Source of the DNA: Escherichia coli
Lineage (GTDB): Bacteria; Pseudomonadota; Gammaproteobacteria; Enterobacterales; Enterobacteriaceae
DNA length: 1,086 nt
Direction: 5' to 3' (one strand)
NCBI RefSeq assembly: GCF_003334815.1
Contig: NZ_QOWO01000107.1
A program made the translations under genes and the position numbers. The notes beneath the pieces were generated by a model. The model had not been told where the DNA came from. It searched no databases and saw only the letters and a program-made list of their open reading frames with translations. Below, piece by piece: positions 1-1,004 of the stretch; positions within the stretch are counted from its first letter, which is position 1; the number at the start of each line of letters is the position of its first letter.

Positions 1-68
1 TTCGCCAGGAACGACCGGAACGCGGCATCATGCGGCGTGGGCGTTGTGGTGTTTTTCTTCTTACTCAC
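1..68 (-). CDS. hypothetical protein, 5' end only (continues past the left window edge); N-terminus MSKKKNTTTPTPHDAAFRSFLA...
   Basis: GTG start at 68..66 preceded by GGAGG (77..73) with a 4-nt spacer; the start overlaps the TGA stop (67..65) of the upstream gene as GTGA; frame stays open to the window edge (22 codons); the initiation region and first ~19 codons are homologous to the start of the 65..580 gene. Not in the ORF track because it is truncated by the window. Confidence 0.5.
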   Translation of the reverse strand, partial: MSKKKNTTTPTPHDAAFRSFLA

Positions 69-77
69 GGTTCCTCC
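51..77. repeat. 27-bp direct repeat, copy 1 (gtttttcttcttactcacggttcctcc); on the minus strand this is the SD plus GTG start of the 1..68 gene
   Basis: 25 of 27 nt identical to 563-589; weaker homology continues into both downstream coding regions. Confidence 0.8.
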
Positions 78-580
78 ATCAAATCAGCAGCATCGCAGCA
101 ATCATCGTCCAAATCCCCACAACCAAGAGGACAGCAATTGCGATCAAAGCCGTGACAACAATAGCCACGTTCTGCGTCACGGCGTATTTCTTCTGCAATC
201 TCTTCAGCGGAAAGGTAATCAAACTCCTCACGGGCCAGTTCCAGGACCAGCAGATGTTGTTCTGTCGGCAATGTAGACACAAAATTATCAATAGCAGCAC
301 TCAAACGTCGCTGATATAGCTCATAAACAAGACCACAACGGTGCATTAGTTCTTCGGATAATAGTTCCAGTTTTGAGCGAACGCTGTCAGCATTGAAAGT
401 GACTTCATCAGATGACATCTGAAAATCTTTGTCAGTGTCAAAACAAGACTTCATTTTTATCTCCTGCCCGTCCGGGCCCTGAATGAAAGAAAACCTGTTT
501 CCCTTCTCTGTTTTTTTATGGAACAGGAGGAATCCGGTACCATGCGACATAGACGTCATGATGTTTTTCATCTTGCTCAC
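65..580 (-). CDS. hypothetical acidic protein, 171 aa from GTG at 580 (alternative internal ATG at 454 would give 129 aa); Cys-rich C-terminal tail GYCCHGFDRNCCPLGCGDLDDDCCDAADLMEEP; no family recognised
   Basis: Long open frame (part of the 65..676 track ORF); GGAGG at 589..585 then 4 nt then GTG at 580..578; this initiation region is duplicated at the next gene; CTG/GAA/CGT-rich codon usage; roughly 34 Asp+Glu against 19 Lys+Arg by my count; stop TGA at 67..65. The track start at 676 is rejected: it has no SD and overlaps the upstream gene. Confidence 0.6.
   Translation of the reverse strand: MSKMKNIMTSMSHGTGFLLFHKKTEKGNRFSFIQGPDGQEIKMKSCFDTDKDFQMSSDEVTFNADSVRSKLELLSEELMHRCGLVYELYQRRLSAAIDNFVSTLPTEQHLLVLELAREEFDYLSAEEIAEEIRRDAERGYCCHGFDRNCCPLGCGDLDDDCCDAADLMEEP
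73..77 (-). promoter_or_regulatory. Shine-Dalgarno (GGAGG) for the 1..68 gene, embedded in the last codons (M-E-E-P) of the upstream gene
   Basis: GGAGG then AACC then GTG, with the GTG overlapping the upstream TGA as GTGA. Confidence 0.55.
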
Positions 581-589
581 GGTTCCTCC
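563..589. repeat. 27-bp direct repeat, copy 2 (gtttttcatcttgctcacggttcctcc); on the minus strand this is the SD plus GTG start of the 65..580 gene
   Basis: 25 of 27 nt identical to 51-77; differences at repeat positions 8 and 13. Confidence 0.8.
585..589 (-). promoter_or_regulatory. Shine-Dalgarno (GGAGG) for the 65..580 gene
   Basis: GGAGG then AACC then GTG; sits inside the duplicated 27-bp element. Confidence 0.55.
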
Positions 590-644: not shown

Positions 645-911
645 TCAGTGGCAGACCCGTTCAATTTCAAGCGCACGGAGCAGGTGCCCCCACTCGCTGA
701 CTTTCATGGCGGGGATACGCACCCGCTTCCGCTCACTGCAGCGTCTGGCGATATGACCGCCCATCGCCAGGACGTCCGGGTTAATCTCATCCGGTGCCAG
801 TTCCTGGCGTCTGAAGCGGGTATGGCGGTGCAGGGGTTTGTTCTCCCGCAGGCACTCTTCACGCAGACGCTTTACATATTCAGCCGTTGCAAAGATAATT
901 GATGGTCTCAT
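645..911 (-). CDS. hypothetical small basic protein, 88 aa (MRPSIIFATAEYVKRLREECLRENKPLHRHTRFRRQ...ERVCH); Arg-rich, possibly nucleic-acid binding; identity unknown
   Basis: ATG at 911..909 preceded by GGAG (923..920) with an 8-nt spacer; stop TGA at 647..645; Leu codons are CTG-dominated on this strand (6 of 8) versus CTC-dominated on the mirror plus-strand ORF; about 15 Arg + 4 Lys against 12 Asp/Glu. The track extends this ORF to 1007 (120 aa), but the extension crosses the terminator hairpin and uses rare AGG/ATA/CGG codons. Confidence 0.5.
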   Translation of the reverse strand: MRPSIIFATAEYVKRLREECLRENKPLHRHTRFRRQELAPDEINPDVLAMGGHIARRCSERKRVRIPAMKVSEWGHLLRALEIERVCH

Positions 912-978: not shown

Positions 979-1004
979 GCAGGGTTTATCGCCCTGCTTT
1001 TTTT
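979..1004 (+). terminator. intrinsic (rho-independent) terminator hairpin, strongest on the plus strand; possibly bidirectional
   Basis: Stem GCAGGG (979-984) / CCCTGC (992-997), 7-nt loop TTTATCG, then T7 run (998-1004); an A-rich tract upstream (973-977) could extend the stem. On the minus strand the same hairpin is followed by the weaker tract CTTTCTCT. Confidence 0.6.

Follow-up and report, generated by a model that had tools for sequence, protein, structure and literature searches.

Our analysis suggests, with a probability that we put at roughly 0.58, that the cysteine-rich stretch on the minus strand of the window (the whole 1,086-nt stretch of DNA analysed) is the metal-binding knuckle of CcgAII, an acidic four-helix protein of the plasmid leading region with a role in early establishment or anti-defence. 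The stretch occupies window 65-166, which translates into GYCCHGFDRNCCPLGCGDLDDDCCDAADLMEEP followed by a stop codon and corresponds exactly to the final 33 residues and stop of a 171-codon open reading frame (ORF; window 65-580, minus strand, GTG start) with the C-terminal end ...ERGYCCHGFDRNCCPLGCGDLDDDCCDAADLMEEP. Seven cysteines fall within these 33 residues at a spacing of CC-x6-CC-x3-C-x6-CC, in a context with a net charge of -8 (nine D/E and one K/R); at a background Cys frequency of 1.1%, the presence of at least seven cysteines in 33 residues has a probability of ~6e-8. Since the Cys positions are kept in hundreds of homologues, the motif is not a chance occurrence. The acidic Cys-rich tail reported in the earlier note is therefore real, its coordinates and spacing matching the translation, but the description left out an invariant histidine that lies between the first two Cys groups.

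The gene has been annotated before. In RefSeq, ccgAII spans window 65-454 (minus strand; 129 aa plus stop, WP_001317525.1) with an ATG start at 454-452 and an AGGAG Shine-Dalgarno sequence 6 nt upstream at 465-461, and its homologues carry the name CcgAII. Database entries with 100% identity to the window protein include two AFDB models named CcgAII (V5KC41 and A0A648F2K8), and the gene is annotated as ccgAII in pS62-1. In a word-indexed search, CcgAII-named proteins of the IncN pKM101/R46 type (~101-106 aa) displayed 51-77% identity to the window protein. The IncN pKM101/R46 protein itself stands at 73-77% identity over the common ~100 residues (E ~1e-41 to 1e-45; 7.5e-45 to 2.7e-41 for the entries P0010-P0013 named CcgAII), and the two share helical-body motifs (CGLxYELYQRRLS..ID and AR.EFDY), the knuckle C-[CS]-H-G-x4-CCPLGCGDL and a location in the leading region. 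The Cys-rich tail is the signature end of this family, which has a name and is widely annotated. Compared with IncN CcgAII, the IncI1 protein has 12 additional N-terminal residues (54 in the 171-aa reading) and an acidic C-terminal extension of 11-14 residues with an extra CC, while its gene has a 4-nt overlap with an rpn nuclease gene and lies behind a repeat resembling an Frpo single-stranded DNA (ssDNA) promoter instead of the CUP/ArdK-controlled promoters described for IncN.

The 171-aa length given to the protein in the earlier note relies on a frame that does exist, but RefSeq annotates 129 aa and the 42 extra residues are a remnant of the rpn 5' end. This in-frame upstream extension (window 455-580, minus strand; GTG 580-578, preceded by GGAGGAA at 589-583) encodes a basic segment (pI 10 for residues 1-42). 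A repeat search and alignment showed that window 520-589 is a degenerate duplicate (repeat family D4; minus strand, 70 nt, 76% identity) of window 8-77, which comprises the GGAGGAACC-GTG ribosome-binding site of the downstream rpn gene together with its first ~20 codons. Since the rpn 5' end is duplicated there, the 42 residues can be explained as an rpn remnant that is open into ccgAII by chance. The family alignment contains no counterpart of this extension in other CcgAII members, its frame and sequence vary among IncI variants (P0004, P0005), and the ancestral family start aligns with M13 of the 129-aa protein. Because the remnant retains a strong ribosome-binding site, a longer CcgAII isoform may nevertheless be produced; the Cys motif is the same whichever start codon is used. 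The duplicate upstream of the gene also makes ccgAII look as if it had been inserted into, or recombined beside, the 5' end of rpn.

A profile search of 1.84 billion representatives recovered 429 clusters (50% identity) at E<=1e-3, including 285 at E<=1e-10, and most of their representatives are stand-alone proteins of 95-110 aa. Matches in AFDB come from beta- and gamma-proteobacteria (Escherichia, Proteus, Xanthomonas, Pseudomonas, Burkholderia, Comamonas and Nitrosomonas) under the names CcgAII, 'plasmid-related protein' or uncharacterised, and a Vibrio member was present among the sequence matches. Conservation was counted in the 140 distant representatives, drawn from the 429 clusters, that cover the knuckle, and only C-x-H-x6-C-P-x-G-C proved essentially invariant. 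In the numbering of the 129-aa protein, C99, C108 and C112 are cysteine in 140/140 sequences, H101 is histidine in 139/140, P109 is proline in 136/140 and G111 is glycine in 139/140. The partner residues of the doublets behave differently: C100, the second Cys of the first doublet (C142 in the 171-aa numbering), is a cysteine in 11/140 (8%) and usually a serine, and C107, the first Cys of the second doublet (C149), is a cysteine in 97/140 (69%) and otherwise Thr, Tyr, His or Trp. Since these are the invariant positions, the conserved unit is a four-residue Cys3His set and not the Cys doublets, with a consensus of C-x-H-G-x4-(C)-C-P-x-G-C-G-[DE]. The proposal that the doublets form the key unit thus does not hold, as the partner Cys of each is dispensable and the terminal CC is lineage-specific and lies in a low-confidence tail. 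The window protein carries every invariant column of the signature. Other strongly conserved positions (G41, Y47, S52, D56, A74 and Y80) suggest a conserved interaction surface.

In the window, the conserved knuckle G-Y-C-C-H-G-F-D-R-N-C-C-P-L-G-C-G-D maps to positions 113-166 (minus strand), and the predicted ligands are C141 (158-160), H143 (152-154), C150 (131-133) and C154 (119-121) in the 171-aa numbering, equivalent to C99, H101, C108 and C112 in the shorter protein. AlphaFold2 run with the family alignment (mean pLDDT 82, pTM 0.69) predicts a four-helix bundle with helices 22-40, 44-59, 64-78 and 83-95 at pLDDT >90. The knuckle (96-115) is modelled, with no metal included, as a small beta-bridge and turn that caps the end of the bundle (pLDDT ~86-91), whereas the first 20 residues and the tail (116-129; tail pLDDT 50-62) are of low confidence. 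Together with the near-universal conservation of the four residues, this well-modelled loop makes a metal-binding knuckle the best supported of the three readings that the earlier note had proposed. The four side chains would most likely bind a single Zn2+ ion, which would probably staple the C-terminal loop onto the helical bundle, and C142 and C149 would be accessory residues. A disulfide-rich motif, another of the three, is unlikely because the protein is cytoplasmic and no library recognises a leader. The description of the body as acidic was borne out: the 129-aa protein has a pI of 4.23 and a net charge of -19, and 88 stand-alone members show a median pI of 4.5 and a median net charge of -10. 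Acidity is a trait of the CcgAII family as a whole.

The earlier note recognised no standard zinc-finger or Fe-S spacing, and our searches agree. No significant match was obtained in Pfam-A, NCBIfam, PHROGs or PDB sequences with the full protein, the family profile or the isolated knuckle peptide, so that no well-described domain of known function was found in these libraries. The 171-aa protein matched no zf-* or Fe-S profile of Pfam-A, nor did 30 longer members of the family, and no related fold was present in the PDB or among viral predicted structures. Zinc knuckles with three cysteines and one histidine are well known, for instance the retroviral CCHC knuckle (CX2CX4HX4C) and the DnaG-type CHC2 site, and a C-P-x-(x)-C-G turn is typical of zinc knuckles. 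CcgAII resembles them in that its three Cys and one His are confined to a very short segment, in having this turn and in capping a small domain. It differs by the order C-x-H-x6-C-x3-C, by the lack of any Pfam zinc-finger match at E<=10 and of any PDB sequence or fold match, and by its strong acidity with no sign of nucleic-acid binding.

Several other identities were considered. Many GenBank entries are labelled 'cobalamin biosynthesis protein CbiX' (P0002, P0007, P0016, P0017, P0021, P0022; CP061251, CP088777 and others). No NCBIfam match was found at E<=1, Pfam returned only two chance matches at E>1 and the predicted fold is a four-helix bundle; since no CbiX model matches, the label is a propagated misannotation. 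The best PDB profile match, the DtxR-like archaeal protein 2x4h with a common 'FDYL..EEI...C-P-H-G-L-E', has E = 0.13 and was taken as chance. Mimicry of the SSB tail was discarded as a family feature, as only 15/86 short-tailed members end in an aromatic residue; the IncI1 protein ends in ...MEEP. In PADLOC, the model PDLC02935 (retron type III-A PRTase) matched 6/11 short members over its positions 3-68 of 290 (E 1.3e-6 to 0.03) and 0/10 longer members, for which no PADLOC match of any kind was obtained. This similarity is weak but recurrent, and restricted to enterobacterial-type members; it covers the helical body (~30-93 in the 129-aa numbering; window ~176-367), leaves the knuckle outside and involves no PRTase domain. 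A Pfam search for fusion partners in the 30 longer members gave one bPH_2 domain in a single protein and nothing recurrent.

Beyond the knuckle, the protein ends in an IncI-specific acidic tail, DDDCCDAADLMEEP (window 68-109, minus strand), which carries the last CC doublet (95-100). The ccgAII stop codon TGA (67-65) and the GTG start of rpn (68-66) overlap in a GTGA sequence at window 65-68 (minus strand), as seen from the annotated coordinates and the sequence. The rpn gene encodes an Rpn-family (transposase_31/ygdB) nuclease, and its 5' end is present in the window at 1-68 (minus strand); in the surrounding sequence L001, of which the window is 12001-13086, it extends over 11142-12068, where 12068 is window 68. 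The last codons of ccgAII (M-E-E-P-stop) fall inside the rpn ribosome-binding site GGAGGAACC, and IncN-type ccgAII is homologous at the nucleotide level only up to about window 100, just short of CCDAADLMEEP. Since homology stops before the CC and the final codons lie in this site, the last CC is part of an IncI-specific junction extension of ~11 residues. C161 and C162 (171-aa numbering) would thus sit in a probably flexible acidic extension that arose where ccgAII was joined to rpn. Among the 140 representatives, 80 end no more than 6 aa past the last ligand Cys and two have the tail CC. The doublet is kept in all IncI-type variants seen (P0001, P0003, P0007) while the flanking Asp residues vary, and acidic '...DCC...' tails recur independently in two distant members (P0112, P0203). 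Because of its retention among IncI variants, a secondary role of the tail CC is possible in this group, though not a general one.

A 73-aa ORF overlaps ccgAII in an alternative frame (window 79-300, minus strand), and the rare variants P0008, P0025, P0038 and P0041 are frameshifted into it, so that the knuckle is missing (...AIVVMALNAIAVLSVVGIWAMIAAMLLI); sequencing errors or pseudogenes probably account for these variants. Another 73-aa ORF, labelled hypothetical, lies just downstream of rpn (L001 10921-11142, minus strand) and is a free-standing copy of the Rpn C-terminal domain, with 52% identity to Rpn residues 244-306 (E = 2e-15). The C-terminal domain of Rpn has been reported as an intragenic antitoxin, Rpn_S (PMC10327210), and a plasmid leading region that combines a toxin-like Rpn nuclease with an Rpn_S-like gene separate from it is unusual.

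Dozens of E. coli and Salmonella plasmids contain the 1,086-nt window at 100% identity, and matches that are at least partial were obtained in ~1400 records of E. coli genomes and in 2000 of PLSDB; nearly all are conjugative plasmids. At a coverage of at least 80%, the ccgAII ORF is found in 508 plasmid records, almost always adjoining the Rpn gene. In pE2863-1, the window is part of the IncI1 leading region, the DNA that first reaches a new cell, with ccgAII between ardA and nikA/oriT, in the R64-style order nikA(oriT)-yggA-ygfB-ygeA-ygdB(rpn)-ccgAII-ygdA-ygcA-ardA-ygaA-psiA-psiB-parB-ssb. The upstream ygdA gene (window 645-911, minus strand), transcribed in the same operon direction, encodes an 88-aa basic hypothetical protein that gave no match in NCBIfam, PHROGs or PADLOC. 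A GC-rich hairpin (GCAGGG-N7-CCCTGC, window 979-997) is located between ygcA and ygdA. On the plus strand a T-run comes after it, and on the minus strand a CT-rich tract; this hairpin might serve as an attenuator within the operon, or as a terminator that works in both directions. Distant CcgAII members occupy comparable positions: directly after a TraI_2 relaxase in an integrative and conjugative element (ICE), between DUF932 and SSB/KorA/KleA in a plasmid, beside DndB, SprT, H-NS, Topo III and SSB, in an ICE with TraG_N, and in an F-like leading region (ParB-PsiA-...-X-...-N6_Mtase-Antirestrict-TraM/Y/A). No neighbour gene that would point to a target recurs across these loci, and no relatives were found in viruses, either by a degenerate-pattern scan of IMG/VR contigs or among viral predicted structures. 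CcgAII (~100-130 aa) is a product of the leading or establishment regions of proteobacterial conjugative plasmids and ICEs, and its gene is confined to conjugative elements.

The timing of expression is suggested by the position of the gene. Two ~330-nt repeats with 90% identity bracket the ygcA-ygdA-ccgAII-rpn module outside the window (L001 10100-10450 and 13482-13832), and when folded as ssDNA, the upstream copy forms a long hairpin (-115.8 kcal/mol, z = -11), consistent with a single-strand promoter of the Frpo/ssi type. An Rfam search of the surrounding 8 kb returned no families. The name ccgAII stands for 'CUP-controlled gene', CUP being a conserved upstream repeat and ArdK a repressor, and the IncN gene was reportedly first described as such by Delver and Belogurov in 1997. 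Since the repeats of the IncI1 operon are Frpo-like hairpins, regulation of IncI1 ccgAII probably differs from the CUP/ArdK control of IncN. Three Frpo-homologous repeats have been described in this IncI region (PMC3817090), and in work on pESBL, an IncI1 plasmid, operons that follow ssi/Frpo-type hairpins reached inductions of up to ~500-fold in the first 15 min after transfer (PMC12672017), a report in which ccgAII is not named. As the operon lies directly behind such a hairpin, CcgAII would probably be made in the recipient right after DNA entry, an early induction that we infer from gene position only.

CcgAII can be compared with other establishment proteins of the leading region. ArdA, KlcA/ArdB and PsiB are likewise small, mostly acidic proteins encoded by adjacent genes in the same leading regions, and they act by binding host proteins. 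They are not known to have a Cys/His metal site, and CcgAII displays no sequence or structural similarity to them. In IncI1, they are expressed from ssDNA promoters right after transfer (PMC12672017). In the literature searched, ccgAII is mentioned at annotation level only, as 'antirestriction' (PMC3817090) or as 'prevention of RecA overproduction' (PMC3347995), two statements that are mutually inconsistent. No functional experiment on the gene was found there, the search for zinc or cysteine leading-region proteins brought nothing relevant, and the RefSeq record of R46 holds no functional notes on ccgAII. CcgAII would probably act on its own by binding or inhibiting a conserved protein of the host or the plasmid, in plasmid establishment, anti-defence or SOS control.

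The nature of the metal site leaves room for a different chemistry. The Cys3His set, possibly with C40 or C107, could hold a [2Fe-2S] or [4Fe-4S] cluster and make CcgAII a redox- or oxygen-sensitive factor instead of a zinc-stabilised protein, which we regard as unlikely but worth bearing in mind. Fe-S sites with three cysteines and one histidine exist in CDGSH/NEET proteins and in IscR, and CcgAII has in common with them such a set within ~15 residues (14 in this case). Additional cysteines are also frequent nearby, since C40 is a cysteine in 112/140 (80%) representatives, C107 in 97/140 and the variable residue of CPxGC in 30/140 (~21%, the CPCGC variant), for a median family content of 6 Cys per ~100 aa; besides, the CbiX label found on some entries would designate an Fe-S/His-rich chelatase, albeit with no model behind it. 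However, spacing and order depart from the CDGSH motif, there is no homology to these proteins, and neither Pfam (zf-CDGSH included) nor NCBIfam returned any Fe-S family match. C40 and C107 were examined as a possible pair or disulfide, but they show no covariation (Fisher p = 0.26) and each is dispensable. Only four ligands are thus fixed, and in small domains this arrangement most often represents a structural Zn site. A more remote proposal turns to the doublets as a thiolate-rich cluster for soft metals (Cu(I), Cd or Zn) or a redox-active tail of the metallothionein/Cox17 kind, with C142, C149, C161 and C162 forming a second site in IncI1. These are exactly the four cysteines that the IncI1 protein has beyond the core set, and both the maintenance of the tail CC next to variable Asp residues in IncI variants and the independent acidic DCC tails would fit. 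Yet with the tail CC in 2/140 and C100 in 11/140 representatives, this cannot be the mechanism of the family; the tail is also predicted to be disordered, and the fact that the rpn ribosome-binding site dictates the final four codons and the stop, together with the end of IncN homology ahead of the CC, fits a by-product of the junction.

The acidity of the protein invites another explanation, in which CcgAII would be a DNA mimic that blocks type I restriction in the manner of ArdA/Ocr and the knuckle would serve only as a scaffold. Its net charge of -19 over 129 aa, its leading-region position next to ardA and the 'antirestriction' annotation (PMC3817090) all speak in its favour, and it is compatible with a Zn site. 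No homology or common fold with ArdA, Ocr or KlcA was detected. We hold this explanation to be rather improbable, on a par with an Fe-S cluster. Finally, the tail might be no genuine product at all but the outcome of a frameshift, of non-coding read-through or of a chance ORF. The overlapping 73-aa alternative-frame ORF and the frameshifted database variants P0008, P0025 and P0038 could be invoked here, but these variants are rare (1-7 member sequences each), more than 400 homologue clusters share the frame up to and including the knuckle, and dozens of complete plasmids carry the sequence at 100% identity. A frameshift near position 300, which the earlier note had raised as a concern, was looked for and none is present, the frame following the family consensus to its end. 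An artefact is effectively refuted.

To conclude, the reading of the Cys-rich stretch as the metal-binding knuckle of CcgAII reveals no new kind of system, but it corrects misleading 'CbiX' annotations and an over-long 171-aa gene model. Leading-region genes are a reservoir of anti-defence functions (PMC11541004; PMC12672017). A new host expresses them before any other plasmid genes, and CcgAII is among the more widespread of the uncharacterised ones; its invariant, putative four-ligand Cys3His set offers a direct experimental handle. More speculatively, CcgAII might represent a widespread and unclassified family of metal-dependent effectors of the first minutes after transfer, in which the Cys3His site (possibly Fe-S or redox-active) would be required to neutralise a conserved host factor acting on the incoming ssDNA (defence, SOS/RecA or repair), with a second thiolate site in the tail of the IncI1 protein. 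We consider this extended scenario doubtful, but if true, it would add a mechanistically new class to the anti-defence or establishment proteins of plasmids.
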